A program made the translations under genes and the position numbers. From Bryobacterales bacterium (GTDB taxonomy: Bacteria > Acidobacteriota > Terriglobia > Bryobacterales > Bryobacteraceae), in assembly GCA_963838455.1 (NCBI GenBank), contig CAWISY010000142.1, forward strand, positions 21,763-85,762: 64,000 nt of DNA, written 5' to 3'. The notes under the pieces are model-generated. The model made no database searches and was not told where the DNA came from. It saw nothing but the letters and a program-made list of their open reading frames with translations. Shown in pieces: positions 25,738 to 37,749 of the stretch (its first letter is position 1; each line of letters begins with the position of its first letter).

Positions 25738-27558
25738 GTGAACATCCAGACCATCCCTCTGACCCTGCTGATGTGGAGCGCGCAGGTTGCGGTCTTGACT
25801 GCCGCCGCGGCGCTGGCGGCGATGGCGATTGCGCATCCCAAGGGCCGCCTGGCGCTGTGGCAGGGATTGCTCGCGGTGTTGCTGCTGCTGCCCGCCATCG
25901 AGCCGTGGAAAGCCGCGCCGCTGCCCATGATCGCGCCAGTGCCGCAGGCAACGTTCGAGATCGCCTACAATCCAGCGGCTTCGCAGCCGGCCAGCCTGCA
26001 CTGGCGCCCCGAATACTGGCTGTGGCTAATCGCAGCCGGCGCGGCACTGCGCCTTTTGTGGATGGCCGCCGGATTCCTGCGGCTGCAGCGCTACCGCCGG
26101 TACGCCCACCCGATTGCCGAGCCGCTGCCTTCGTCGGCGGGCTCGGTCGCCTGGTACGCCAGCGACGCGGTTCCCGGTCCGGTGACCTACGGCTGGCGCA
26201 GGCCAGTGATTTTGCTTCCGTCCAAGACGCTGGACCTGCCCGCCGATCTCCGCGAGGCCATCCAGTGTCACGAACTGATCCACGTCCACCGCGGCGATTG
26301 GCTCTGGGTGGTGGGCGAGACCGTGGTGCGCAGCCTGCTCTGGTTTCACCCCGCCATCTGGTTCGTGATGAATCGGATTCAACTGGCGCGAGAACAGGTT
26401 GTCGACCAGCAAGCCGTCGGGTTGCTCCACAATCGCGACTCCTATCTGGACGCGCTGGTGGCCGTCGCGGCGTATCAGCTCCGGCCGGATCTTACCCCCG
26501 CGCCTTTGTTCTTGAGAAAGCGCCATCTGCTGGCGCGAGTCGAAGCAGTTGTGAAGGAGGTTCCTATGTCCCGTCCCAGAATGTTTGCCGGAATCACGGC
26601 CGTTTGCTCGCTATTGCCCGTAGCGGCCTTTGCCGCCGCGTGGATGTTCCCCTTTGTTACTCCGACCCAGGTTCGAGCCCAAATGATCAAGGGTAAAATG
26701 GTCACCGCCGCCGTGGCGGACAGCCCCGGCGTTACCGTCGAGCCCGGCGGCGTCCTGCTCCATCGCGCGGCCGTCCTGGCCCCAGCGGGCACCACCGCCA
26801 CCGGGAAAGTGCTGCTGGAGGCAACGCTCAACGCCCAGGGTGAAGTCACCGACGCGCGCGTGATCAGTGGTCCGCAGGAGCTGCGCAACGCCGCGCTCTC
26901 CAGCGTCCTGCAGTGGCACTATCAGCCCGGCCCCACCGTGGCTGAGATCGGAATTCAGTTCAGCGCCGCCACCAACGCCGCTTCTCCGTCACCGGCTCCT
27001 CCTCCGGTTCCGCAGCCTTTGACGACGCTCAACGGCATCGAATTCCGCGGCCTCAGCGCCGAAGCCGAGCAGGAGTTGCGGCAGCGCCTGCCCCTGCATG
27101 CGGGAGACGCAATCACGCCGCAGCTTATGGCCGACAGCTTCGCCGTACTGCATTCCTATGACAGGCACCTCGGTATGAGAGCGGTCAACCGAGTCCCGGG
27201 CGGCTATTCTTTGGTGATCGGGCCGCAGAGCGTGCCGGCGACGGCTGCCACGGCTGCTGCGCCTGCCACGGTCTACCGTCCCGGCGGCGACATCTCCAAT
27301 CCTGTCCCCATCAGCCGCCCGCAGCCTGAATACTCCGAAGAAGCCAAAACAGCCAAGTGGGGTGGAACGGTGCTGCTGTCCGTGGTGGTGGATGAAACCG
27401 GACACACTCGCGACATTCGTGTGCTGAAGCCTCTAGGCTTCGGCCTGGATGAGAAAGCCATCGAAGCCGTCTCCAAGTGGACCTTCCGCCCCGGGATGAA
27501 GAGCGGAGTGGCTGTCCCGGTCACCGCGCAGATCGAGGTGAGCTTCCGGCCGCTCTAG
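25738..27558 (+). CDS. BlaR1-like M56 peptidase fused to TonB C-terminal domains (paralog 2)
   Basis: GTG start. QCHELIHVHRGDW. High identity to paralog 1 across the M56 domain and the first periplasmic domain. TonB_C end (GTVLLSVVVDETGHTRDIRVLK). Confidence 0.85.
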   Translation: MNIQTIPLTLLMWSAQVAVLTAAAALAAMAIAHPKGRLALWQGLLAVLLLLPAIEPWKAAPLPMIAPVPQATFEIAYNPAASQPASLHWRPEYWLWLIAAGAALRLLWMAAGFLRLQRYRRYAHPIAEPLPSSAGSVAWYASDAVPGPVTYGWRRPVILLPSKTLDLPADLREAIQCHELIHVHRGDWLWVVGETVVRSLLWFHPAIWFVMNRIQLAREQVVDQQAVGLLHNRDSYLDALVAVAAYQLRPDLTPAPLFLRKRHLLARVEAVVKEVPMSRPRMFAGITAVCSLLPVAAFAAAWMFPFVTPTQVRAQMIKGKMVTAAVADSPGVTVEPGGVLLHRAAVLAPAGTTATGKVLLEATLNAQGEVTDARVISGPQELRNAALSSVLQWHYQPGPTVAEIGIQFSAATNAASPSPAPPPVPQPLTTLNGIEFRGLSAEAEQELRQRLPLHAGDAITPQLMADSFAVLHSYDRHLGMRAVNRVPGGYSLVIGPQSVPATAATAAAPATVYRPGGDISNPVPISRPQPEYSEEAKTAKWGGTVLLSVVVDETGHTRDIRVLKPLGFGLDEKAIEAVSKWTFRPGMKSGVAVPVTAQIEVSFRPL

Positions 27559-27602
27559 CTGGAGCATGCTATAGTGCTAAATTGCCCGCCTTGGCGCGGA
27601 CC

Positions 27603-28325
27603 ATGCAGCACGAGGCCTCTACTACAGACCAATACACCCTTCTGGATCAGCAGCTTATGAGCCGGGCCACGCGCTATTTCGCGTGGCAAGCCTCGACCGC
27701 CCAAGCGCATCTGGGCCGGCGAGTCATCGAAACCGGCTGCGGCATCGGCAACTTCACCCGCTACTTGACCGGTTGCGAACTGGTGGTCAGCATCGATGTG
27801 GTGGAGGAGTGCGTGGAGCGCAACCGCGCCCATTTCGCCTCCCATCCCAACATGCAGTTCCGCTGGCTGGATGTCCAGAACCCGGCCTTCCTCGACTTGA
27901 AATCGCTGCGCCCGGACACCGTCGTGTGTCTCAATGTGCTGGAGCATGTGCGTGACGATCGCCTGGCCCTCAAGCACATGCATCACGTGCTGGTCCCGGG
28001 CGGGCGCGCCATCTTCTTACTGCCGGCCTTCGAAGCGCTGTACGGACCCATCGACAGCAACCTGGGCCACTTCCGCCGCTACTCCAAAGCCGGGTGGCGC
28101 AAAATGGCGGAGGAAACCGGCTTCCGCGTCACGGAATCGCGCTACTCCAATCCAATCGGCTTCGTGGGATGGTGGATTGGCGCCCGAATCCTGCACCGCC
28201 AAACACATTCCGCCGCGATGATCAAAATCTTCGACCGCTTCGCCGTTCCTCTCCAATCGCAAATCGAGCGATGGATTGAGCCGCCCTTCGGACAATCCAT
28301 CTTTACCGTTCTTGAGAAGGTATAA
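27603..28325 (+). CDS. class I SAM-dependent methyltransferase
   Basis: VIETGCGIGNF (motif I), VVCLNVLEHV, GGRAIFLLP. Confidence 0.8.
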   Translation: MQHEASTTDQYTLLDQQLMSRATRYFAWQASTAQAHLGRRVIETGCGIGNFTRYLTGCELVVSIDVVEECVERNRAHFASHPNMQFRWLDVQNPAFLDLKSLRPDTVVCLNVLEHVRDDRLALKHMHHVLVPGGRAIFLLPAFEALYGPIDSNLGHFRRYSKAGWRKMAEETGFRVTESRYSNPIGFVGWWIGARILHRQTHSAAMIKIFDRFAVPLQSQIERWIEPPFGQSIFTVLEKV

Positions 28326-28336
28326 TCTCACCGGAG

Positions 28337-29260
28337 GTGAGCATGAACAAATCCGCCCTCGCGTGCGCGCTGGCAGGCATTGGGTCCTTTGCCCTTGTCG
28401 CGGTGACCGTGCACGGCCAGGCCCAAACGGACTACAGCAAGGTGCAGATCAAGACCACGAAGTTGACTGCCGACTTCTATACGCTGGAGGGCTCCGGCGG
28501 AACCATCGGCGTGCTGGCAGGCCCCGACGGAATCTTCATGGTCGACGGAGAGTTCGCCCCGCTCACCGATAAAATCATGGCTGCTATCCGCAAAATTTCT
28601 ACCGCGCCGGTGCGTTTCATGATCAACACCCACGTCCATCCCGATCACACCGGAGGCAACGAAAACTTCGCCAAGCTGGGCGTGACCATCTTCGCGCGGC
28701 CCGAGCTGCGCGATCGCCTGGCGCATCCCAATCCCGGAGCCAATGGCGCTCCCGGAACGCCCGCTCCCGCCGCGGCGCTCCCGGTGGTCACCTATGACGC
28801 GCCCATCGCCTTCCACATGGACGGCGAAGAAATCGACGCGATTCCCGTCCCGCGAGCCCACACCGACGGCGACACCATGGTGCATTTCGTCAACGCCGAC
28901 GTGATCATGACGGGCGATTTCTACCGCTCCATCCAATACCCGAACATCGACCGCGCCAACGGCGGCTCGCTCAAGGGCATGCTCGCCGGGTTGAGTGAAG
29001 TGGTCGCGCTGGCGGGGCCGAAGACCAAGATTGTGCCCGGTCATGGGGCGGTGGTCGATCGCAATGCCGTGGCTGCCCACCGCGACATGATTCTGGTTTT
29101 GCGCGATCGCGTGGCGGAGCAGATCAAGCAGGGCAAGACCCAGGAGCAGGTGGTCGCCGCCAAGCTCACCTCCGACTACGACTCCAAGGTTCCCGAAGTC
29201 GGCACCACCGCGGATCGCTTTATCGGCCAGCTTTACGCGGATTTGAAGGCCGCGCAGTAA
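28337..29260 (+). CDS. MBL-fold metallo-hydrolase, secreted
   Basis: Signal peptide. NTHVHPDHTGGN (HxHxDH), later RAHTDGD and PGHG. Confidence 0.85.
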   Translation: MSMNKSALACALAGIGSFALVAVTVHGQAQTDYSKVQIKTTKLTADFYTLEGSGGTIGVLAGPDGIFMVDGEFAPLTDKIMAAIRKISTAPVRFMINTHVHPDHTGGNENFAKLGVTIFARPELRDRLAHPNPGANGAPGTPAPAAALPVVTYDAPIAFHMDGEEIDAIPVPRAHTDGDTMVHFVNADVIMTGDFYRSIQYPNIDRANGGSLKGMLAGLSEVVALAGPKTKIVPGHGAVVDRNAVAAHRDMILVLRDRVAEQIKQGKTQEQVVAAKLTSDYDSKVPEVGTTADRFIGQLYADLKAAQ

Positions 29261-29305
29261 AGCGCAAACGCGGACACTGAGCCGCGCGCGTAGCAAGCGG
29301 TCTTT

Positions 29306-30556
29306 CTAACGTGGGTCCGTAATCCGGCCGGCCAGCGCCGACGCCGCCACCGTATCGGCCGAACCCAGATAGACTCGCGCCTTCGGATGCCCGTTGCGGC
29401 CCGGAAAGTTGCGAGCCTGATTCGAGATCATGGCTTCCGATTCACTCATCGCACCCATGTTCACGGCTTGATTCGATCCCGCGCTGGGCGGGAACAAAAT
29501 CGCTCCGGCCTCGAGCAGCGTTTCGATCAAGCCTTCCCGCAACGCGGCGAGCAGAATCCCGCGCGTGGCCGGGACAATCTGCATCCGCACGTTGGGATGG
29601 ACCTTCTTGCCGCGCAGCCGGGCCGCCGCCGCGCGAATGTCGCACAACCGGCCTCCGGTGCTGCCGCCGATCTCGGCCAATTGAATTTCGATACCGGCAA
29701 CCTCGTCAATGGGCCTCACATTGCCCACTGTCGGTGGACACGCGACCTGCGGCTCGAGTTTGCTGACGTCGATATCCACGACTTTCGTATATTTGCCGCC
29801 GGGGTCGTTCAAGAACATCTCGAAGCGGCCCGCCGCATGCCTTTTGGCAAACTCCAGGGTGCGCTCATCAGGATTGATGAACCCGGCCTTGGCTCCCAGG
29901 TCGATCGCCATCAGCGGAAACAACAGCCGGTCTTCGATCGAGAGCTGCTCAATGAACGGTCCCGCATACTCGACCGTCTGATACACCGCGCCGTCCTCGC
30001 CCAGAAAACCTTCCAGGTACTGCGCAACATCGCGAGGCGTCACGCCGTGTTGAAGCTCCCCATGGAGAAACACCTGGAAGGTGTCCGGCACCTTGAACCA
30101 GCATTTGCCGTGCGCGTACCCAAGCGCAGCCATCGAATTGTTCCCGACCCCGGTGGAAAAAACCCCCAGCGCGCCGTAAATCGTGGTGTGCGAATCGCAG
30201 CCGATCACAATCTGCCCCGGCGCCCACAAAGCGTTCTCGATGATCACGTGATGGATGCTGCCCCAGCCCGAATCGAAGACGTTCGTGATCCCGTATTTTG
30301 CGGCGAATTTGCGGGCCTCCGTGAGCACCTCGGCATCGCGCTGCGACGGCGGCGAGAAGGTGTGATCGAAGACGAACGCGATCCGAGAAGGATCGAAGAT
30401 GCTGCCTCCGCCCATCTCCTGCTCGAAGACTTTCGAGACCAGGTTCGAGCTCAGATCGTGCAGGACCATCCGGTCTACGTTGGCTACGACGATCTCGCCC
30501 GGCTCGACCTGCTTTTTCCCGCTCGCCCGAGCGAGAATTTTCTCGATCATGTTCAT
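29306..30556 (-). CDS. aconitase-family large subunit (LeuC/HacA-like) lacking the three Fe-S cysteine ligands
   Basis: MNMIEKILA..., FVFDH, GCDSHT and ARNFPGRNG are retained. It has EIGGSTGGR where the neighbouring paralog has LGSCANAK, and PPSAGSNQA where that paralog has NPGCGACAG. Confidence 0.8.
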   Translation of the reverse strand: MNMIEKILARASGKKQVEPGEIVVANVDRMVLHDLSSNLVSKVFEQEMGGGSIFDPSRIAFVFDHTFSPPSQRDAEVLTEARKFAAKYGITNVFDSGWGSIHHVIIENALWAPGQIVIGCDSHTTIYGALGVFSTGVGNNSMAALGYAHGKCWFKVPDTFQVFLHGELQHGVTPRDVAQYLEGFLGEDGAVYQTVEYAGPFIEQLSIEDRLLFPLMAIDLGAKAGFINPDERTLEFAKRHAAGRFEMFLNDPGGKYTKVVDIDVSKLEPQVACPPTVGNVRPIDEVAGIEIQLAEIGGSTGGRLCDIRAAAARLRGKKVHPNVRMQIVPATRGILLAALREGLIETLLEAGAILFPPSAGSNQAVNMGAMSESEAMISNQARNFPGRNGHPKARVYLGSADTVAASALAGRITDPR

Positions 30557-30566
30557 AGGGGCACCT

Positions 30567-31424
30567 TCATAAAAGACCCGTCCCCGAACATGTATCGCCG
30601 TAGTACAAGCCATCGTGTTCGACGCGCAACGCATAGATTGAGCCTGTTCCTGTTTCATACGGCTGCGGCCCCGCGAGATTCTCGCGGTATCCGCCGCCGT
30701 CGGCCAGCGCGGCATCAAAGCGCCGTTCCAGTCTCACGAATTCGTCTGCCGGCCCATACGGTCGCGTCACCTTCACCCAATGCCCACAGCGCTCCATCGC
30801 AACTTCGACCGAGTAAGCGTCCCCGCCGCGCGGCTTCACCCGAATCACGAGATCTTCAGCGCCATAGTGGCGGAGGAGACGCTCAAGCCTTCCAACCTCA
30901 AAAACGCGCCCCTCAAGACCGTCCAGCGCCTTTCGGGCAAGCACAACGGCCGCTCGCCGCATCGAATGTTCAGCGTTGTCGGTATCCGTAATTCCCTTGG
31001 ATGGCACGTCGACAATCTTCCCGCGCAGCCCGTCGCGAATCTCCACCGGCAGATGCGGCAAATCCAGCACCCCAAGCTTCGACCATCCCCGCTCCGCGCA
31101 CAACTGCTCCAGCGTCGTCATCAACTTCGACGCAGGACGAATGTCTTCGAAGATGGTCACTGACTTGATCCATGGATAGACTCGCGGCGAAAGCGCGCAC
31201 AGCAGCACCGGAGGACCTTCGCGCGGAATCACGATCAGCGACCGGTTCCAGTACGGCATGAAATTGGTCAAGAACCGGCCTTGGTTGGAGCGCCACACGT
31301 CGGTGTAAACCAGCAGCGCAGGGAGATCCCGCTCGGTTAGCGCGGTGCGCACGCGTGCGAGCCGCTCTTCGAAGACCTCGGGAGGAAGCATTGCTTTATC
31401 CCACGCAATTAGACCGCGCTTCAT
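30567..31424 (-). CDS. creatinase/prolidase N-terminal-like protein (M24-related, no catalytic motifs seen)
   Basis: 285 aa. FEERLARVRTALTERDLPALLVY resembles the Creatinase_N domain. The start overlaps the upstream stop (ATGA). Confidence 0.55.
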   Translation of the reverse strand: MKRGLIAWDKAMLPPEVFEERLARVRTALTERDLPALLVYTDVWRSNQGRFLTNFMPYWNRSLIVIPREGPPVLLCALSPRVYPWIKSVTIFEDIRPASKLMTTLEQLCAERGWSKLGVLDLPHLPVEIRDGLRGKIVDVPSKGITDTDNAEHSMRRAAVVLARKALDGLEGRVFEVGRLERLLRHYGAEDLVIRVKPRGGDAYSVEVAMERCGHWVKVTRPYGPADEFVRLERRFDAALADGGGYRENLAGPQPYETGTGSIYALRVEHDGLYYGDTCSGTGLL

Positions 31425-32464
31425 CCGGCTTCCTTCACAAAGAGCTTACGCTCGGTTTGATTCAACCGCTCATTGCCTGAGGCCGTAATTAGCGTCGTAT
31501 CCCCGAACACCATGTACCCGGCCAGCGGCAGATACGTGTTCGGATGCGCGATCACCACCATATTTTCTTTAAACACATAATCGACGTCTTCCAAAATGTG
31601 CGGCGTCTCGTCTGGATAGAGCCCCAGGCAGTGGCCTCGTACACGCGTATATTTCGCGCCGGTGTAATCGCCGTAGCCGTATTTGCGAAACACATCGTTC
31701 TGCGCCTTCGCCGCATCCGACGCCTTCACTCCCGGCCGGATCAAGTCCTGCGCGGCCTGCTGCGCTTCGTAAAAAATGGCGAAGGATTCGATCTGATCCT
31801 TCGACGGCTCGCCCAGCACTACGGTCCTGCAGATCTGCGCGTAGTAGCCGTTTACGCACGGCGTCAGCTCCGTAATGACGGAGTCGCCCTTTTGCAGCTT
31901 GCGCTCGGTCGGCGGTTTCATGCCGACCACCTCGGTCCCGCCGGAAGCGATCAGCATGAAGTTGTCTTCGGCGCCCTGCGACTTCAAGAACCCTTCCACT
32001 TCCGCAACCAATTCGTACTCCCGCATTCCCACAGCGGCCGTTTCCGCGAAGAACTGATAGCCGCGATCCGCCAGCTCGGCGGCCTGGCGTAGCCACTCGA
32101 TCTCCTCTGGCGTCTTGACGCGCCGCAGTTCCTCCACGTCCGCCGTCGCTGACACTGGCGACCCGTTGACGAATTGGCTCTCCATCCATTCAAGACCCGC
32201 GATGGCCGAGGCTTTGGGTAAATCGCCCGTGAACTCCCGCGCACTCGGAACCAGGTCCCGATCCCAGGGATCCGCCAGCATCACGGTCAATTCCCCGGAA
32301 CGGGTCAGATGCGCGGCCCCGAAAGGGCCACAATAGTTGACATTCACCAAGCCACGGAAGTGGTCTTTGCGCCAGCCGTTGCCGTACAGCAGAATCGAGT
32401 CCCACCCTCGCTCCACCATCAGATCCATCAACTGGCGTCTCCGGCGCTCATTCACAGGACTCAC
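31421..32464 (-). CDS. M24-fold (creatinase / Xaa-Pro peptidase family) protein lacking canonical metal ligands
   Basis: Pita-bread fold signature GDSVITELTPCVNGYYAQICRT...GHCLGL...VVIAHPNTY. GTG 32464 overlaps the upstream TGA (GTGA). Confidence 0.7.
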   Translation of the reverse strand: MSPVNERRRRQLMDLMVERGWDSILLYGNGWRKDHFRGLVNVNYCGPFGAAHLTRSGELTVMLADPWDRDLVPSAREFTGDLPKASAIAGLEWMESQFVNGSPVSATADVEELRRVKTPEEIEWLRQAAELADRGYQFFAETAAVGMREYELVAEVEGFLKSQGAEDNFMLIASGGTEVVGMKPPTERKLQKGDSVITELTPCVNGYYAQICRTVVLGEPSKDQIESFAIFYEAQQAAQDLIRPGVKASDAAKAQNDVFRKYGYGDYTGAKYTRVRGHCLGLYPDETPHILEDVDYVFKENMVVIAHPNTYLPLAGYMVFGDTTLITASGNERLNQTERKLFVKEAG

Positions 32465-33537
32465 GGTGAGACACTCTCCAGGAACCATTCGGTCGGCAAT
32501 TCGCGGCCCAAGCCTAATGCCCGAGCCCGCTTCACCACCGCCGCGCCCACCGCCGCGAATTGCGTGCCCGCGCCGGTGTTGTTGTTGAAGCAAGTGATCT
32601 GCTCAGGGCTGGTGCGCCCCTGAGCTTTACCCGCCACAAGATCTTGCAATTCGCCAATATCCTCCCAACGAACGATCCCCTTCTGCGCGACCTCCCACAC
32701 ATCCGGCGACTGATCGTTCTTCGCGACCTCCTTGGAATGCACGAAATAAACGTCGGCGCGGCGGATGCATTCGTCGTCGATCTCGCGGCGCTTGTTGCTC
32801 GCATCGGAGCCGCCGATGGAGGCGACATACATGCCGCGTTCGACCCAATGGCCGTCGAAGACCGGGTCCCACGCAGCGGTCGCCGCCTGGATGAAATCGC
32901 TGCCCGTGACGGCTTCCTTGGGAGTCGCCACACAGCGCACCTCACGGCCCAGCTTTTTCGTCATCCCCTCACAGAAGTGGCGGCAATGTTCCTGATTCGG
33001 GCTGTGAACTTTGATTTCGTCGAAGGAATACTGCGCAGCCAGGAATTCGAGATGCGCGCTGGCCTGCCACCCGCTGCCGAATAACCCCAGCGTGTGCGGC
33101 TTCTCCGGAGCGAGATAACGAGCCCCGACGGCGCTCATCGCGGCGACCCGCACTTTTTGAATCACTCCATCGGGCATGATCGCCACCGGCTCGATCTTTG
33201 CCACGTCGAACAAAATCACGAGGCCGCAATATTTGTTCCCGGTCGCAACCGGCAAGATTCGCCGTCGCTTCACGCCCGCCGTATAAGAAAATCCCGCCAT
33301 GTCGGACGTCAGTCGCAGAGCCCATACGCCGCAATCGAGGCTTCCGCCTTCCTGCGTCTTCATCCGGTAGTGAAACCCGGGATGCTCCTTCGATTCCGCC
33401 GGCAAGTATACCTGCGACCTCGGCCGATTGAGCGCCTTACCCTCGGCCAATTCGCGATAGATGCTCTCGGTGGCCGCGATCGCTTCCTGCGGCAGCAGCG
33501 CCTGCTCGACCTCTTCGTTATTCAGTAGCAGGGTCAT
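32461..33537 (-). CDS. ornithine cyclodeaminase / mu-crystallin family protein
   Basis: MTLLLNNEEVEQALLPQEAIAATESIY..., LGLFGSGWQASAHLEFL Rossmann motif. Start overlaps the upstream stop (ATGA). Confidence 0.85.
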   Translation of the reverse strand: MTLLLNNEEVEQALLPQEAIAATESIYRELAEGKALNRPRSQVYLPAESKEHPGFHYRMKTQEGGSLDCGVWALRLTSDMAGFSYTAGVKRRRILPVATGNKYCGLVILFDVAKIEPVAIMPDGVIQKVRVAAMSAVGARYLAPEKPHTLGLFGSGWQASAHLEFLAAQYSFDEIKVHSPNQEHCRHFCEGMTKKLGREVRCVATPKEAVTGSDFIQAATAAWDPVFDGHWVERGMYVASIGGSDASNKRREIDDECIRRADVYFVHSKEVAKNDQSPDVWEVAQKGIVRWEDIGELQDLVAGKAQGRTSPEQITCFNNNTGAGTQFAAVGAAVVKRARALGLGRELPTEWFLESVSP

Positions 33538-34073
33538 GATCGAAGCAAAGCTTGGCCAGCATCGGACTTAAGCAGCGGAATCAGCCCTCCGGCGCGCAGC
33601 ATGTCGAGCAGGATGCCGCTGGGAGGTGTGCCCTGAATCGTCGCGCCCGTGGTCAGATTCTCCACCACTCCACGTTCGATATCGACGCGCAGGCGATGCC
33701 CGGTCTCGACCATCTCATGTATCCCGCGCACTTCCAGAATCGGCAGCCCGATCTCCGGCCCGTTGCGATAAAACGTGCGCGAGAAAAATTCGGCCAGCAC
33801 CGCGCCCACTCCCGTCGCCTTAATCGCCTTGGGCGCGATGGCTCGTCCGGAGGAGCATCCGAAATTCCGGCCGGCGACGATAATATCGCCCTCCTTCACG
33901 TTCTTGGGGAAATCCGGATTGGCGTTTTCGAGAACGTGCTTCACCATCTCCTGCATACCGCGCATCACCAGATGCGTGGGAGTGATCATGTCCGTGGGAA
34001 TGTTATGGCCGAACTTCCAGCAGTTGCCTTCCAGTATCAGATTCACGTGATTTCCAACCCGTCTTGCGTCCAA
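33534..34073 (-). CDS. aconitase-family small subunit (LeuD-like swivel domain)
   Basis: WKFGHNIPTDMITP, GRNFGCSSGRAIAP, FSRTFYRNGPEIGLPILE. Start uncertain (ATG 34073 or GTG 34046); it overlaps the end of the MFS gene. Confidence 0.8.
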   Translation of the reverse strand: MDARRVGNHVNLILEGNCWKFGHNIPTDMITPTHLVMRGMQEMVKHVLENANPDFPKNVKEGDIIVAGRNFGCSSGRAIAPKAIKATGVGAVLAEFFSRTFYRNGPEIGLPILEVRGIHEMVETGHRLRVDIERGVVENLTTGATIQGTPPSGILLDMLRAGGLIPLLKSDAGQALLRS

Positions 34074-35232
34074 GCGCCGCGAGCAACACGAACGCCAGCA
34101 CGCAGGATAACAGGTCCACGGTGAACGCGGTCGAGTAGTGATGCGTCTGGTCGTAAATCCTCCCCGCCACCACTCCGCCGGAACTGGTCCCCAGCCCGAA
34201 GAACATCATCAGCAGGCCCAGGATGGTGCCCACGCGCTCCGTTCCGAAATATTCAAAGGCGATCAGCGACGGAGCGTTGAAGATTCCGCCGTAGCCTAAC
34301 CCGAACACCGCCGCGGCCAAATAGATTTCATTGGCTCTCGGATCGGCCGCCAACAAAATCCCGATCCCGGCCATCAGGCACACGGCCGCCAGCATCATGG
34401 ACACGCGCGAAGAAAACCGGTCCGCCGCGGACCCTCCCAGCAGCTTCCCCACCGCGCTCGCACCCAGCAGCGTGCTCAAAGCCTGCGCCGAGTTGGCCGG
34501 GTTCACCCCCTGCCCGCGCAGATACAGCACCAGGTTCTCCTGCACTCCCATCAGCGTGTGCGCCGCAAAAAAGGACGCGATACCGAAAATCCAAAACACC
34601 GGATTCGAGAGTACCCCGCCCGCTCCGGCAAGCGTGTGCCTGTTTCTGGAAGGGCCGCCTTCGGCGGCTCCGCGCCCGGGAGCAAGCACCAGCGTCATCA
34701 CCAAGGGAATCGCCAGCGCCGTGCTGAGCAGCAGAAACGCCTGCGAGTAACCATCCTTCGCGATCAGCTTGGTGGCGAGCTTGGGAAAAACATATCCTCC
34801 CAGCCCGACTCCCGCATTGATCACGCCCACGGCGAGCCCGCGCTGCTTCGAAAACCAAGGAGCGATCAGCATCGACGCCGGCACCAGCGATGCTCCCGCC
34901 GTGCCGATGCCGAGGAGCGTGCAGAATGCGTACCACTGGCCGACCGTTTGCGTGGTCGAAAGCAGGCACATCGCCGCGGCGACCGTTACGCATCCGCCCA
35001 GAATCACCAGCTTCGGGGAAAATCGATCCGCGAGCCAGCCAATCAGCGGCCCTAGAATCCCGATCAGCAGCAGGGCAATCGACCCGCCGCCCGCCGCTTG
35101 CGCATGCGACCACCCGAACTTTTTTGGGTCCGCGAATACGGGGTAGAACACGGGTAGCGAGAATCGCCCCGCGCAAAACCCCACCGCGAGCGCGGTAAAC
35201 GCGACCACCAACCCTCGGACCCGGCTGTTCAC
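34003..35232 (-). CDS. MFS transporter
   Basis: 409 aa, 12 hydrophobic helices. First gene of the minus-strand operon. Confidence 0.85.
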   Translation of the reverse strand: MNSRVRGLVVAFTALAVGFCAGRFSLPVFYPVFADPKKFGWSHAQAAGGGSIALLLIGILGPLIGWLADRFSPKLVILGGCVTVAAAMCLLSTTQTVGQWYAFCTLLGIGTAGASLVPASMLIAPWFSKQRGLAVGVINAGVGLGGYVFPKLATKLIAKDGYSQAFLLLSTALAIPLVMTLVLAPGRGAAEGGPSRNRHTLAGAGGVLSNPVFWIFGIASFFAAHTLMGVQENLVLYLRGQGVNPANSAQALSTLLGASAVGKLLGGSAADRFSSRVSMMLAAVCLMAGIGILLAADPRANEIYLAAAVFGLGYGGIFNAPSLIAFEYFGTERVGTILGLLMMFFGLGTSSGGVVAGRIYDQTHHYSTAFTVDLLSCVLAFVLLAALGRKTGWKSRESDTGRQLLEVRP

Positions 35233-35242
35233 TGCGGAGATT

Positions 35243-35908
35243 CTATCGCACGCCGGAGCTTGCCTGCTTAACCCGCGCGAGCCGGGCGAGGATCTCCTGC
35301 TTCTCCGCCGCGAGAATGTCGTCTGTGTCCAGGTCGTACTTGGCCACGGTCATATATCTGTCCCAGAGGTAGTAGAGAGCCCCTACGGGCGAGTACGCCG
35401 GGACAGCCAAGTACGATGAAATAACGTAACGGTGTGGACCGTAATGCGCCTCCTCCGGGCCCCAGACAACTTCAGCCGTAACGAACATCTTCGCGTCCGA
35501 CATCCCAGACTCCGTCCAGAACGCGTGCTGATTTTGGTTCGAAGTCGATGCGTCGAAAACAAACAGATCCTCCAGGCCCCTCGCCGCGCCCGGCCGGAGC
35601 AACGCAAAATGGACCAACCAGCCGCTCGCCCCGTAACTTTCCGCCGAGAATAAAAGTGCAGGGGAGCCTGGCTCGATGTCGACCACTTCTACGCGCGGAT
35701 TTCTTACAAACTCTGCCGGCATCGTGTAACACTGCCGCGGAGCACCTTCCAGACACACTGATGCGGGGCCCTTGAAGGTAAACCCGTCCTTTTCGCTGCC
35801 CTGATCCACCACCGTCACATCGCGGCCCATAAACTTCAAGTGCTCCTGCGCGCCGGCCGCAAAGGCCGCTAGCAGAACCACCCACGAAATTACCGCGAGC
35901 CGCGACAT
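35243..35908 (-). CDS. hypothetical secreted protein
   Basis: Signal peptide MSRLAVISWVVLLAAFAAGAQ from ATG 35908. No motif recognised. Confidence 0.55.
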   Translation of the reverse strand: MSRLAVISWVVLLAAFAAGAQEHLKFMGRDVTVVDQGSEKDGFTFKGPASVCLEGAPRQCYTMPAEFVRNPRVEVVDIEPGSPALLFSAESYGASGWLVHFALLRPGAARGLEDLFVFDASTSNQNQHAFWTESGMSDAKMFVTAEVVWGPEEAHYGPHRYVISSYLAVPAYSPVGALYYLWDRYMTVAKYDLDTDDILAAEKQEILARLARVKQASSGVR

Positions 35909-35985
35909 CACGCTTAGCGTACCAGCATCCGCGCACCTGCATGCTATACTCATGGCCGCCTGGTTCTCTCCAGGAGCCGGTCCTC

Positions 35986-37242
35986 ATGGGAAAGACCATC
36001 GCTGAAAAAATCCTCGCCGCCAAATCCGGCAAATCTGCCGTCATCCCCGGTGAAATTGTCGAAGCTTACCCCGACCTGGTGATGAGCCACACGGCCACCT
36101 GGCGGTCGGTCAGCGTGATGAATAAGGTCGGCGCAACCAAGCTGTACGATCCGGACCGGCTGGCCGTCGTGCTCGATCACATCGCGCCTGCCAAGTCCGA
36201 AAAGAACGCCGCCGATCACCAGGTCTGCCGCACCTTTGTCCGCAAATACGGCATCCAGAAGTTCTACGACGTCGACGCCGGCATCGCCCACCTGGTGCTG
36301 ATGGAAAACGGACACGTCGCGCCGGGCGACCTCATCGTCGGCACCGATTCGCACTGCACCATCTACGGCAGCCTGGGCGCGTTGGGCACTGGGATCGGCT
36401 ACACCGAAGTCACCTCGGTCTGGATTACGGGCAAATTGTGGATGAAGGTCCCGGAGAGCTTCAAAATCACGCTGAGCGGCGAGCTCCCCCCCGGCGTTTA
36501 TTCCAAAGACCTGATGCTGCACCTGATCGGCACGCTCGGCGCTGACGGCTGCAGCTACAAATCGGTCGAGTTCTACGGTACGGCGTCAAACCTCAGCATC
36601 TCCGAACGCATGACCATGACCAACCTGGCGATGGAGATGGGCGTAAAGTGCGCCTTCATTCCGCCGGATTCGAACACCGCCGGGTATCTCCGCGACCGTC
36701 TCAAGAATCCCGAGCGATACCACCCCGTCCTGGCCGATCCCGACGCCGTTTATGAGCGCGAAATCCCGGTCGACCTTTCAACTCTTGAGCCCATGGTCGC
36801 CTGCCCGCATGAGGTCCAGAACACCAAGCCCATCGGACAGGTGGAGGGCACCCGCATCGACCAGGCGTTTCTCGGCTCCTGCGCGAATGCCAAGTATGAG
36901 GATCTGGTGGTCGCCGCGCGCATCCTCAAGGGCCGCCGCATTCACCCGGGAGTCCGCTTCATCATCACGCCAGGATCGAAAGAGATCATGCTGGAAGCGG
37001 TGAAATCCGGGGTCGCCGCGACCCTTCTGGAAGCCGGTGGGCTGTTCACCAATCCCGGCTGCGGAGCCTGCGCCGGCGACGGAGGCGTCATGGCCGACGG
37101 CGAAGTATGCCTTTCCACCGCCAATCGAAATTTCCTGGGCCGTATGGGCTCGAGCAAAGCCGAGATCTATCTTTCCAGTCCCGCGACCCTGGCGGCGTCG
37201 GCCATCAAGGGCTCGATCGCCGACCCGCGGGAATTCTTCTAA
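35986..37242 (+). CDS. leuC: 3-isopropylmalate (or homoaconitate) dehydratase large subunit, canonical Fe-S type
   Basis: MGKTIAEKIL..., VLDH, GTDSHC, LGSCANAK, NPGCGACAG and NRNFLGRMG are all present. I cannot separate LeuC from HacA by eye. Confidence 0.8.
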   Translation: MGKTIAEKILAAKSGKSAVIPGEIVEAYPDLVMSHTATWRSVSVMNKVGATKLYDPDRLAVVLDHIAPAKSEKNAADHQVCRTFVRKYGIQKFYDVDAGIAHLVLMENGHVAPGDLIVGTDSHCTIYGSLGALGTGIGYTEVTSVWITGKLWMKVPESFKITLSGELPPGVYSKDLMLHLIGTLGADGCSYKSVEFYGTASNLSISERMTMTNLAMEMGVKCAFIPPDSNTAGYLRDRLKNPERYHPVLADPDAVYEREIPVDLSTLEPMVACPHEVQNTKPIGQVEGTRIDQAFLGSCANAKYEDLVVAARILKGRRIHPGVRFIITPGSKEIMLEAVKSGVAATLLEAGGLFTNPGCGACAGDGGVMADGEVCLSTANRNFLGRMGSSKAEIYLSSPATLAASAIKGSIADPREFF

Positions 37243-37257
37243 AACGTGCCATAGAAC

Positions 37258-37749
37258 ATGCAATCCCTCATTCAAGGCCGCGCTTATAAATTCGGGGATA
37301 ACATCAACTCCGACATTATCATCCCCGGCCGCTATTTGATCTACATCGAGCCGCAAAAGCTGGCCGAGCACGCGTTCGAAGTCCTGGGCCCGGAGTTCCC
37401 GGCGAAGCTGCGCAATTTCCAGATCCTGGTGGCCGGCCGTAACTTCGGCTGCGGCAGCGCGCGGGAGCAGGCCGCGACCGCCATTCAAGGGCTCGGAATC
37501 CAGGCCGTGATTGCGTGTTCCTTCGCCCGCACCTTTTATCGCAACGCGATTAACGACGGCCTGCCGATCTTTGAATGCCCCGAGATTTATCCCGCCGTCA
37601 CAGAAGGCGACGAGCTGTCGATCGACCTCGCCGCCAGCGCCATCGTCCATCAGGGAAATTCCTATGGCTTCCCGCAGTTCCCCGAATCCGTACGCAAGAT
37701 TTTGGAGTTGGGCGGGCTGGCTGCTTATTTGAAGACCCAGCTTTTATGA
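37258..37749 (+). CDS. leuD: 3-isopropylmalate (or homoaconitate) dehydratase small subunit
   Basis: AYKFGDNINSDIIIPGRYL, GRNFGCGSAREQA, FARTFYRNAINDGLPIFE. Confidence 0.8.
   Translation: MQSLIQGRAYKFGDNINSDIIIPGRYLIYIEPQKLAEHAFEVLGPEFPAKLRNFQILVAGRNFGCGSAREQAATAIQGLGIQAVIACSFARTFYRNAINDGLPIFECPEIYPAVTEGDELSIDLAASAIVHQGNSYGFPQFPESVRKILELGGLAAYLKTQLL

Follow-up and report, generated by a model that had tools for sequence, protein, structure and literature searches.

An operon with a cysteine-less aconitase-family pair and two M24-fold genes in a Bryobacterales bacterium, and its relatives in several phyla

The locus

The window analysed here, a stretch of 64,000 nucleotides from a Bryobacterales bacterium of the Acidobacteriota (assembly GCA_963838455.1, contig CAWISY010000142.1, positions 21,763 to 85,762), carries at 29306-35232 six minus-strand genes, in the order: a major facilitator superfamily (MFS) transporter (g1), a LeuD-like small subunit (g2), a protein of the ornithine cyclodeaminase (OCD)/mu-crystallin family (g3), an M24-fold protein (g4), a shortened M24 paralog (g5) and a LeuC-like large subunit (g6). 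On the other strand, 0.75 kb from the MFS start, lies a second aconitase-family pair, cLeuC/cLeuD, of the Fe-S type. An earlier description made from the letters of the DNA alone (the sequence-only reading) had seen in g1-g6 a tightly coupled operon in which a diverged aconitase-family pair is parted by OCD and M24-fold genes; this was confirmed, and the arrangement proved to be conserved. The six genes and their family assignments were likewise borne out by the list of open reading frames and by Pfam and NCBIfam searches (Table 1). The proteins belong to known superfamilies; the novelty lies in two apparently remodelled active sites, one in the Cys-less aconitase-family pair and one in g4, and in a loss of Fe-S ligands that appears to have a single origin.

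The junctions are as close as first described. Going down the minus strand, g2/g3 share ATGA (33534-33537), g3/g4 share GTGA (32461-32464), g4/g5 share ATGA (31421-31424), and g5 and g6 are separated by a 10-nt spacer, AGGTGCCCCT (30557-30566, minus strand). The overlap of the small subunit with the MFS stop holds for any usable g2 start: the candidates, TTG 34073 and GTG 34046, both lie upstream of the stop codon at 34003-34005. The GTGA coupling of g3 and g4 is contingent on the start chosen, because the public gene call sets the g4 start at ATG 32428, 36 nt inward, for a protein of 335 aa. No Rfam family was found at 27-40 kb, and a promoter scan gave 0 promoter-like sites, with terminator-like sites at about chance level.

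Table 1. Genes of the operon and of the neighbouring Fe-S pair, with their best domain or family matches
Gene	Product	Coordinates	Strand	Match (E-value)	Remarks
g1	MFS transporter, 409 aa	34003-35232	minus	Pfam MFS_1, 6e-37	first operon gene
g2	LeuD-like small subunit	33534-34073	minus	Aconitase_C, 8e-10 (PF00694, 7.6e-10)	
g3	OCD/mu-crystallin family protein, 358 aa	32461-33537	minus	OCD_Mu_crystall, 7e-40	
g4	M24-fold protein, 347 aa from GTG 32464	31421-32464 (open reading frame to 32593)	minus	Peptidase_M24, 2e-35	
g5	shortened M24 paralog, 285 aa	30567-31424	minus	Creatinase_N, 0.002	match below gathering score
g6	LeuC-like large subunit, 416 aa	29306-30556 (open reading frame to 30718)	minus	Aconitase, 1e-68	last operon gene
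cLeuC	Fe-S-type large subunit	35986-37242	plus	Aconitase, 5e-98	divergent from operon
cLeuD	small subunit of Fe-S pair	37258-37749	plus	LeuD/DmdB family, 3e-52	

A gene set shared by at least three phyla

A profile scan with g5, keeping one genome per species, yielded 80 loci from Bryobacterales/Terriglobia and Steroidobacteraceae/Lysobacterales, including the cultured Peristeroidobacter soli and Steroidobacter flavus. The block g2-g3-g4-g5-g6 is intact in 55 of the 80; nine keep the same order and lack only the OCD gene; the remaining 16 are truncated, fragmented or variant, most of them cut by contig ends. Gene order is thus kept by relatives in both Acidobacteriota and Steroidobacteraceae, so that the loss of order in relatives, which the sequence-only reading had named as a refutation, was not seen. 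Identity between the phyla is high for cLeuC (75%), cLeuD (75%) and OCD (72%), intermediate for g2 (63%), g6 (63%) and g4 (60%), and lowest for g5 (40%). The members rank in the same order of conservation within and between phyla, consistent with the set having been transferred whole.

Carriers in a third phylum, the Actinomycetota, include the cultured Amycolatopsis acidiphila and Geodermatophilus sabuli, in which each protein finds its best match in its window counterpart (identities of 30-59%, also given as 42-59%). In A. acidiphila the order is MarR / MFS-M24-M24b-OCD-AcnC-Acn(Fe-S)-Acn(Cys-less)-AcnC; in G. sabuli the seven genes follow an NMT1-type ATP-binding cassette (ABC) importer and precede a thiamine pyrophosphate (TPP) enzyme. 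Further gene orders occur on two soil metagenome contigs (L103, L107). By these comparisons the seven-enzyme set, g2 to g6 with cLeuC and cLeuD, is conserved in at least three bacterial phyla. The separation of the LeuC-like and LeuD-like subunits, normally neighbours, by three genes is real. Relatives in the Actinomycetota and in clusters attributed to anaerobic lineages hold both pairs adjacent, and the split is therefore one among several rearrangements of a set whose genes stay the same.

Deeper relatives vary the theme. The cluster with the nearest Cys-containing relative of g6 (44%) combines a tripartite ATP-independent periplasmic (TRAP) importer with two complete aconitase pairs, an M24 protein with the active-site residues of g4 (40% to g4), a second M24 protein (28% to g5) and a fumarate-reductase/TfrA-like flavoprotein with a 2Fe-2S protein. 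Similar sets are found on a Clostridiales contig, in a deltaproteobacterial metagenome-assembled genome (MAG) and on further unassigned metagenome contigs. A flavoprotein with Fer2_3 takes the place of OCD in these deep relatives, or in one case a PreA-like reductase. In a HyuAB-type variant (L180) an MmgE/PrpD-family protein stands beside the M24 pair where the aconitase pairs would be, which points to hydro-lyase chemistry on a hydroxy-polycarboxylate.

A TPP-dependent enzyme adjoins two distant versions of the module (L096, 11929-13710; L098, 6213-7877), and that of L096 passes NCBIfam PRK08327, an uncharacterised equivalog. Its presence hints at a 2-oxo acid as a pathway product.

The Fe-S pair as a member of the set

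The sequence-only reading had called cLeuC/cLeuD a normal leuCD pair. Its coordinates and strand stand as described, and its Cys ligands are in place (C300, C360 and C363, with all three Cys present in 54/54 orthologs); the word normal does not stand, in view of sub-cut-off scores and of the pair's travelling with the operon. It is linked to the operon in 53/80 loci, and lies within 10 kb in 36 of the 47 loci with full flanks. Orientation and side relative to the operon vary among loci. In one Steroidobacter-type group the pair directly follows g6 on the same strand; a second such group has the order LysR / g2-OCD-M24-g5-g6-MFS-cLeuC-cLeuD; and the pair is part of the operon in L051-, L060-, L095- and L096-type clusters (Steroidobacteraceae, Actinomycetota).

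Neither aconitase-family pair of the window reaches the NCBIfam equivalog cut-offs for LeuC/LeuD or HacA/HacB. For cLeuC the scores are 437 against 610.65 (TIGR02083) and 218 against 560 (TIGR00170), and for cLeuD 158 against 245.85 (TIGR02084). No leuA, leuB or ilv gene was found near the pair within the annotated parts of the window. Because the pair co-travels with the operon across phyla at high identity, scores below the LeuC/LeuD cut-offs and has no leuA/leuB nearby, the supposed leuCD is, by its gene context, a member of the operon's module. The best solved match of cLeuD is 3VBA, the small subunit of the Methanocaldococcus (M. jannaschii) isopropylmalate (IPM)/citramalate isomerase (1e-45). 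In an alignment to Protein Data Bank chains its specificity loop, GRYLIYIEP, resembles that of 3VBA (ARYLVYTKP) and not that of homoaconitase (GPYLRTTDP), which suggests an alkyl-substituted malate or maleate as substrate of the Fe-S pair.

One Bryobacteraceae MAG (L008, 120-1663, minus strand) has a third LeuCD-like pair, 34-36% identical to cLeuCD and with its Cys ligands present, about 2 kb beyond the module's Fe-S pair.

A Cys-less aconitase-family pair

The assignment of g2 and g6 to the aconitase superfamily is secure. The large-subunit domain of g6 matches PF00330 at 1.4e-68 and NF001614 with 434 bits against a cut-off of 385, and g6 aligns over its full length with 4NQY, the M. jannaschii IPM/citramalate isomerase large subunit (1.8e-90). 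The small-subunit (swivel) domain of g2 matches the NCBIfam LeuD/DmdB small-subunit family (3e-44) and TIGR02087 (150 bits against 109). Within the window, g6 is 40% identical to cLeuC and g2 38% to cLeuD.

All three [4Fe-4S] ligand positions of g6 have changed in the alignment with cLeuC: they are T300, A359 and N362. The surrounding motifs have changed with them, GSCAN to GGSTGG and PGCGAC to PSAGSN, and the Asn before RNF is Ala. The Cys-less state is found in 68/69 orthologs from other genomes, five of these with one Cys; it is found as well in all 120 members of an actinobacterial sub-clade. This second Cys-less branch, with GHGGG and PSTGSNQ as its motifs, comprises cultured Actinomycetota and deltaproteobacterial MAGs and is annotated LeuC throughout. 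What the pair keeps is as regular as what it has lost: D64-H65, D121-S122-H123, R382 and R387 of g6 are invariant in the orthologs and in the actinobacterial sub-clade, and the g2 motif GRNFGCSSGRA is invariant in 69 orthologs, with catalytic S75 and R77 kept. The specificity loop of g2 is unlike the IPM isomerase (IPMI) type. A Cys triad common to both Cys-less sub-clades, as an alternative Fe-S site, was sought and none was found. Judged by the replacement motifs conserved in the orthologs, the loss of ligands in g6 is not decay; the invariance of the replacement residues, here GGSTGG/GHGGG and PSxGSNQ and in g4 its own five-residue signature, suggests remodelled active sites instead.

The five orthologs with one Cys (L010, L011, L013, L014, L043) have it at the middle ligand position again (PPSCGSNQA), the other two ligands still being absent.

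The trait is rare outside the clade. Among the 150 nearest 50%-identity cluster representatives of a library of 1.8 billion proteins, the triad is missing only from the g6 clade and from three or four isolated sequences, and a plasmid collection contained no Cys-less relative (best match 39.5%). In a neighbour-joining tree with 200 bootstraps, all Cys-less sequences are monophyletic (200/200), and their sister is the Cys-containing second pair of the deep-relative clusters (178/200); the window's Fe-S pair joins the first pair of the actinobacterial clusters (Acn_1) in 200/200. Cys-less monophyly at 200/200 with a Cys-containing sister group implies a single event, and by this tree the Cys ligands were lost once. 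The sequence-only reading had taken the split pair for a diverged paralog; diverged it is, but as a local duplicate it does not hold, the tree giving two old lineages that are monophyletic across phyla. The Cys-less lineage occurs in bacteria usually regarded as aerobic, with OCD in the place of the flavoprotein.

Orthologs of g2 directly adjoin the Cys-less large subunit in L085, L095, L096 and L097 (53-58% identity). The Cys-less large and small subunits also occur as a lone pair, with neither M24 nor OCD genes, in three loci (L085, 2-6632; L105; L106); in the first of these the pair lies after an MmgE/PrpD-like gene and before an ABC importer with a fused permease.

The M24 proteins

The M24 protein g4 had been supposed to be of the non-peptidase kind, and its residues agree. 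It has the pita-bread catalytic domain together with a Creatinase_N domain, and matches PF00557 (1.9e-35), the prolidase 1PV9 (2.6e-39), creatinase (2e-17) and the ectoine hydrolase DoeA (4e-9); with the DoeA family models it stays far below cut-off (69 against 613 and 60 against 575). At the positions of the metal ligands D, D, H, E, E of 1PV9, from Pyrococcus (P. furiosus), g4 has E199, Q210, H278, H307 and G321. This EQHHG signature is invariant in 77/77 g4 orthologs and present in 119/120 more distant homologs, the latter being 37-64% identical to a distant query (the first M24 protein, M24a, of L087).

The product of g5 has no NCBIfam match, and its 1051 homologs are all unnamed or 'hypothetical'. 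An AlphaFold2 model (mean predicted local distance difference test score 92.4, predicted template modelling score 0.88) gives it a two-domain creatinase/prolidase-like fold with a shortened C-domain, 285 aa in all as against about 350-400, and the N-domain is its most conserved part. The best Foldseek matches are prolidases, creatinases and EutD (E 4e-12, template modelling score about 0.65-0.69, probability 1.00). The label 'creatinase_N-like' first given to g5 thus captured the weak, sub-threshold Creatinase_N match, and the model and Foldseek refine it to a shortened second M24 paralog. All the cluster variants examined have such a paralog after the EQHHG gene, and g5 is a probable partner subunit of g4.

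The M24 pair also occurs in other company. In three acidobacterial loci (L017, L026, L036) the M24 and short-M24 genes have no g2/g3 upstream, and L017 has no g6 downstream either; L036 comes from the same MAG as a full cluster (L012), so that some genomes have a second M24 pair in another context. An EQHHG M24 gene with its paralog and without aconitase genes was found in a Chloroflexota locus (L094) and in Neorhizobium galegae (L084), next to genes for hydantoinase/oxoprolinase A and B, nitroreductase and an NMT1-type ABC importer. The Neorhizobium locus (plasmid pNgVX, CP090555.1, about 2064-2082 kb) has the order HyuA/B genes, M24 and g5-like gene, NMT1-type ABC importer and Amidohydro_2, with a divergent LysR; its EQHHG M24 protein, 43% identical to g4, is annotated as two coding sequences and is perhaps frameshifted. 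In the plasmid collection relatives of g4/g5 occur only in Neorhizobium, in this different context.

Oxidoreductase, transporter and regulators

The g3 protein is, by its domain and motif, an NAD(P)-dependent imine/amine oxidoreductase of the OCD/mu-crystallin family: PF02423 is matched with 137 bits against 24, and GLFGSGWQAS aligns with GIIGAGVQAR of 6T3E, a Rossmann-type GxGxQA motif. Its closest structures are 6T3E itself, a Delta1-pyrroline-2-carboxylate reductase (1e-28, full length), mu-crystallin, an archaeal alanine dehydrogenase and iminosuccinate reductase 6RQA. Against the characterised subfamilies (OCD, LhpI, BhcD, EutC, SbnB, alanine dehydrogenase) every equivalog model scores far below cut-off, the best at 128 against 417; the EutC model gives 102 against 472. 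Identity to the members in actinobacterial clusters is 45-48%.

In NCBIfam g1 comes closest to an L-lactate MFS transporter and an oxalate/formate antiporter, without reaching the cut-off of either, and it would be a carrier of the monocarboxylate or oxalate-formate type. The MFS gene lies upstream of the small subunit in 49/80 loci, all of them Acidobacteriota; other importers take that place in other phyla. Importers joined to the set comprise OFA-type MFS, aromatic-acid/H+ symporter-type MFS, TAXI- and DctP-TRAP, NMT1-type ABC and TctC, and the regulators joined to it are LysR, MarR and TetR.

Known systems compared

Several known systems resemble parts of this set. The archaeal IPM/citramalate isomerase LeuCD (MJ0499/MJ1277; 4KP1, 4NQY, 3VBA) and HacAB have the same two-subunit architecture and fold as g2/g6 and cLeuCD. 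Their catalytic Asp-His, Asp-Ser-His, Arg and small-subunit Ser/Arg residues are kept in both window pairs, whereas g6 lacks the three [4Fe-4S] Cys and the adjacent Asn, and the neighbours of the window genes are OCD, M24 and importer genes, not leuA/leuB. DmdAB of nicotinate fermentation is a catabolic hydro-lyase of the LeuCD family whose substrates, substituted maleates, come from an N-heterocycle; NCBIfam places g2 and cLeuD in its 'LeuD/DmdB family', although DmdAB is Fe-S dependent and g2/g6, by their ligand residues, would not be.

The pairing of a dehydratase with an OCD-family reductase also has examples. In AcnX with LhpI, and in BhcB with BhcD, the dehydratase yields an imine or enamine acid that the reductase then acts upon (PMC5144071, PMC8184944). 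These are the closest mechanistic precedent for the pairing of both families in catabolism. AcnX lies on another branch of the superfamily and has kept its Fe-S cluster, unlike g6 with its ligands gone; the module contains no proline-racemase-like or hydroxyproline genes, and g3 scores 48 against 400 with the LhpI model and 103 against 500 with that for BhcD.

Creatinase (1CHM) and the ectoine hydrolase DoeA/EutD (6TWK) use Creatinase_N and the pita-bread fold on small carboxylates, and the g5 model matches both. In the dimers of creatinase and DoeA the partner's N-domain completes the active site. The operon differs in that the closest sequence relatives of g4 are prolidases, its site is E, Q, H, H, G, and its putative partner is a separate shortened paralog, not a second copy.

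Among the characterised aconitase-family enzymes, no catalytically active one is known to do without an Fe-S cluster for binding the substrate hydroxyl and activating it. A hint of a cluster-free enzyme of this kind is the maleate hydratase of Pseudomonas pseudoalcaligenes, which van der Werf and colleagues in 1993 reportedly found to be two-subunit, colourless and cofactor-free. Its subunits, of 57 and 24 kDa, are larger than g6 and g2 (about 45 and 19 kDa). Cluster-free hydro-lyases acting on hydroxy-tricarboxylates are found in the MmgE/PrpD 2-methylcitrate dehydratase family; its fold is unrelated to aconitase, and its members were found in L180 and L085 and not in the window.

A possible catabolic module and its alternatives

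One way to understand the locus, held here with slightly better than even confidence, is that the window shows one permutation of a conserved seven-enzyme catabolic module with an importer. Constant enzymes, interchangeable importers and regulators of the substrate-responsive type together point to catabolism of an imported small carboxylate; some of the importers depend on binding proteins, and such systems work inward only. Uptake and catabolism, already proposed by the sequence-only reading, is therefore kept as the best account of a constant gene set with variable importers and regulators. That the reductases are exchangeable (OCD, FrdA-like, PreA-like, nitroreductase) suggests that a C=N bond or a conjugated C=C bond is reduced or oxidised, and the M24 pair, with HyuA/B as an occasional companion, suggests cleavage of a C-N bond or a ring.

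A pathway can be sketched on these lines. The MFS carrier would import a small carboxylic acid that probably contains nitrogen and may be (hetero)cyclic or unsaturated. The M24 pair, a putative heterodimer of g4 and g5 and not a metallopeptidase, would cleave or open a C-N bond in the manner of creatinase and ectoine hydrolase. The two aconitase-type enzymes would then act on the substituted malate/maleate or beta-hydroxy-amino-dicarboxylate skeleton so formed, by elimination and addition reactions that follow one another (dehydration/hydration, or removal of an amine), the cluster-less g2 and g6 taking a half-reaction that has no need of a Lewis-acid iron. The best guess is that the cluster-less pair performs an elimination/addition or isomerisation, with loss of an amine rather than a hydroxyl, for example, and that the Fe-S pair hydrates. 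Finally OCD would reduce or oxidise an imine or enamine intermediate to give an ordinary amino or 2-oxo acid, with AcnX + LhpI and BhcB + BhcD as precedents. The data show the genes with their unusual active sites, their joint conservation and their phylogeny. The order of the steps is only a suggestion; we infer catalysis, subunit pairing, order and substrate alike.

As to the substrate, nothing speaks specifically for the hydroxyprolines, ectoines, pipecolate and creatine put forward at first: the scores with the ectoine hydrolase and EutC models fall well short of the cut-offs, and ectoine, creatine and hydroxyproline were rejected as specific assignments on account of the profile scores and the residues of the active sites. 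Two variants have MFS carriers of the aromatic-acid type, and some have UbiD or Amidohydro_2 nearby; these are weak hints. The accessory genes as a whole (HyuA/B, PrpD, TPP enzyme, Amidohydro_2, nitroreductase, FrdA-/PreA-like, UbiD) lend a flavour of cyclic amides or unsaturated acids and single out no unique compound.

Several points weigh against a catabolic module of this kind. Of the 47 loci whose flanks are complete, 11 have no Fe-S pair within 10 kb; the cLeuD loop is IPMI-like, and the pair may, in Acidobacteriota, also serve leucine biosynthesis. The OCD gene is missing from nine Steroidobacter-type operons and the oxidoreductase differs between variants, so that nitrogen chemistry is not guaranteed. 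In g4 the residue at the 'PHG' His of prolidase is Met. That His we take to be the equivalent of creatinase's catalytic His. Hydrolase chemistry of g4 is assumed by analogy with its family, since the metal ligands are absent and the 'PHG' His is replaced. A literature search found no description of the module or of a cluster-free aconitase-family enzyme, and no member with known substrate or activity. We know of no proven catalytic precedent for a cluster-less aconitase fold, and g2/g6 might be non-catalytic.

The last point leads to a second perspective, rather unlikely in our estimate, in which the Cys-less pair, the ligand-less M24 pair or both are pseudoenzymes that act as scaffold, substrate-binding or regulatory subunits, be it for the Fe-S pair or for some other enzyme. 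Both proteins have lost what their families normally require for catalysis, g5 is a truncated paralog, and Spt16 is among its Foldseek matches; aconitase homologs of the iron regulatory protein type and M24 homologs of the EBP1/Spt16 type are known non-enzymes. The conserved catalytic residues argue against this: the DH and DSH motifs, two Arg and the small-subunit Ser/Arg are invariant across the two Cys-less sub-clades, the replacement residues are themselves invariant, as a remodelled site would suggest, and the Cys-less pair also stands alone with a PrpD-like gene and an ABC importer.

The other alternatives sit poorly with the gene context. The six genes could form a self-contained operon for a cyclic or N-substituted amino acid, beside a leuCD for ordinary leucine biosynthesis from which the split pair is a local paralog; the Delta1-pyrroline-2-carboxylate reductase as closest solved relative of g3, the joint occurrence of OCD and M24 proteins in ectoine utilisation (EutC/EutD), the IPM-isomerase type of the cLeuD loop and the divergent transcription of the Fe-S pair in the window would suit it. 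It is unlikely all the same, for the 'leuCD' co-travels across phyla, lies in-operon in Gammaproteobacteria and Actinomycetota and fails the LeuC/LeuD cut-offs, EutC and EutD/DoeA score 102 against 472 and 69 against 613, g4 lacks prolidase-type metal and catalytic residues, and the two pairs are ancient lineages and no local duplicates. A decidedly unlikely role is that of a backup IPM isomerase, independent of oxidants and iron, that stands in for the oxygen-sensitive Fe-S LeuCD when the cell is under oxidative stress or short of iron, in the way that class II fumarase takes over from class I; the place of the pair beside leuCD would reflect that common role. This draws on g6 having an IPM/citramalate isomerase as its closest solved homolog and keeping its catalytic residues with the cluster ligands gone; on the Cys-less clade living in usually aerobic bacteria, with Cys-keeping sisters in clusters assigned to anaerobic lineages; and on the adjoining Fe-S pair with its IPMI-like loop. 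But the Cys-less pair is embedded in, and translationally coupled with, genes for OCD, two M24 proteins and an importer, and it stays with these genes across three phyla, with LysR or MarR as the regulator; the surroundings contain neither leuA nor leuB nor ilv genes, and the g2 loop is not of the IPMI type. Highly improbable is a biosynthetic role, in which the cluster would produce an amino or organic acid in modified form, such as a chelator or signal, and export it through the MFS carrier: archaeal-type aconitase pairs are best known from 2-oxoacid elongation (leucine, lysine, coenzyme B) and MFS carriers can export, yet no variant has a LeuA/homocitrate-synthase-like or LeuB-like gene in or near it, binding-protein-dependent importers (TRAP, ABC, TctC) stand for the MFS in others, and LysR/MarR/TetR regulators are typical of substrate-induced catabolism.

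The catabolic module can be carried a step further, into a proposal that is possible though doubtful. In it g2/g6 would be an active cluster-free hydro-lyase or C-N lyase of the aconitase fold, arisen once from an Fe-S ancestor as a catabolic pathway of anaerobes entered aerobic soil bacteria; together with a heterodimeric M24 enzyme without a metal site it would make up a widespread, undescribed pathway for a common soil carboxylate, possibly N-heterocyclic or hydroxy-polycarboxylic.

The Cys-less clade, if active, would be a case of the aconitase fold doing cluster-free chemistry, and an oxygen- and iron-independent alternative of practical interest; the EQHHG M24 subfamily, with its obligatory paralog partner, would put the pita-bread fold to a new use outside the peptidases. 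Carriers of the module belong to soil lineages that are abundant (Bryobacterales, Steroidobacteraceae, Pseudonocardiales, Geodermatophilales), its relatives lie in clusters assigned to anaerobic groups (Clostridia, Deltaproteobacteria, Chloroflexota), and on this distribution an unrecognised flux of a carbon/nitrogen substrate is probably involved. The deposited names, 'LeuC', 'LeuD', 'Xaa-Pro peptidase', 'ornithine cyclodeaminase' or hypothetical, distort metabolic reconstructions. Several cultured strains of several phyla carry the set, which makes it a good experimental target and directly testable.

Flanking genes

Three long antisense open reading frames, 29387-30991 (plus, 534 aa), 28328-29296 (minus, 322 aa) and 36778-37650 (minus, 290 aa), were rejected as genes and are by-products of coding at about 61% G+C; they overlie g5/g6, a metallo-beta-lactamase-fold gene and cLeuC/cLeuD, respectively. 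Rejected as a seventh operon gene was g0 (35243-35953, minus, 236 aa), present only in the closest relative (L037) and without a Pfam match. It ends 10 nt before the MFS start, has a signal-peptide-like N-terminus, is about 50% identical to its L037 counterpart and is maybe co-transcribed.

On the other side, convergent to g6, lies the secreted metallo-beta-lactamase-fold gene (28337-29260, plus). It was not found in more distant clusters; it has the same place in L001, L037 and L053, and in L008 its distance is greater by about 3 kb; identities are 75-87%. A methyltransferase gene at 27477-28325 also flanks the cluster and is unrelated to it. Equally unrelated are the gene at 25738-27558 (plus) and the one upstream of it, a tandem of BlaR1-like Peptidase_M56/TonB_C genes (606 and 646 aa) that recurs in L081 (5821-9594).

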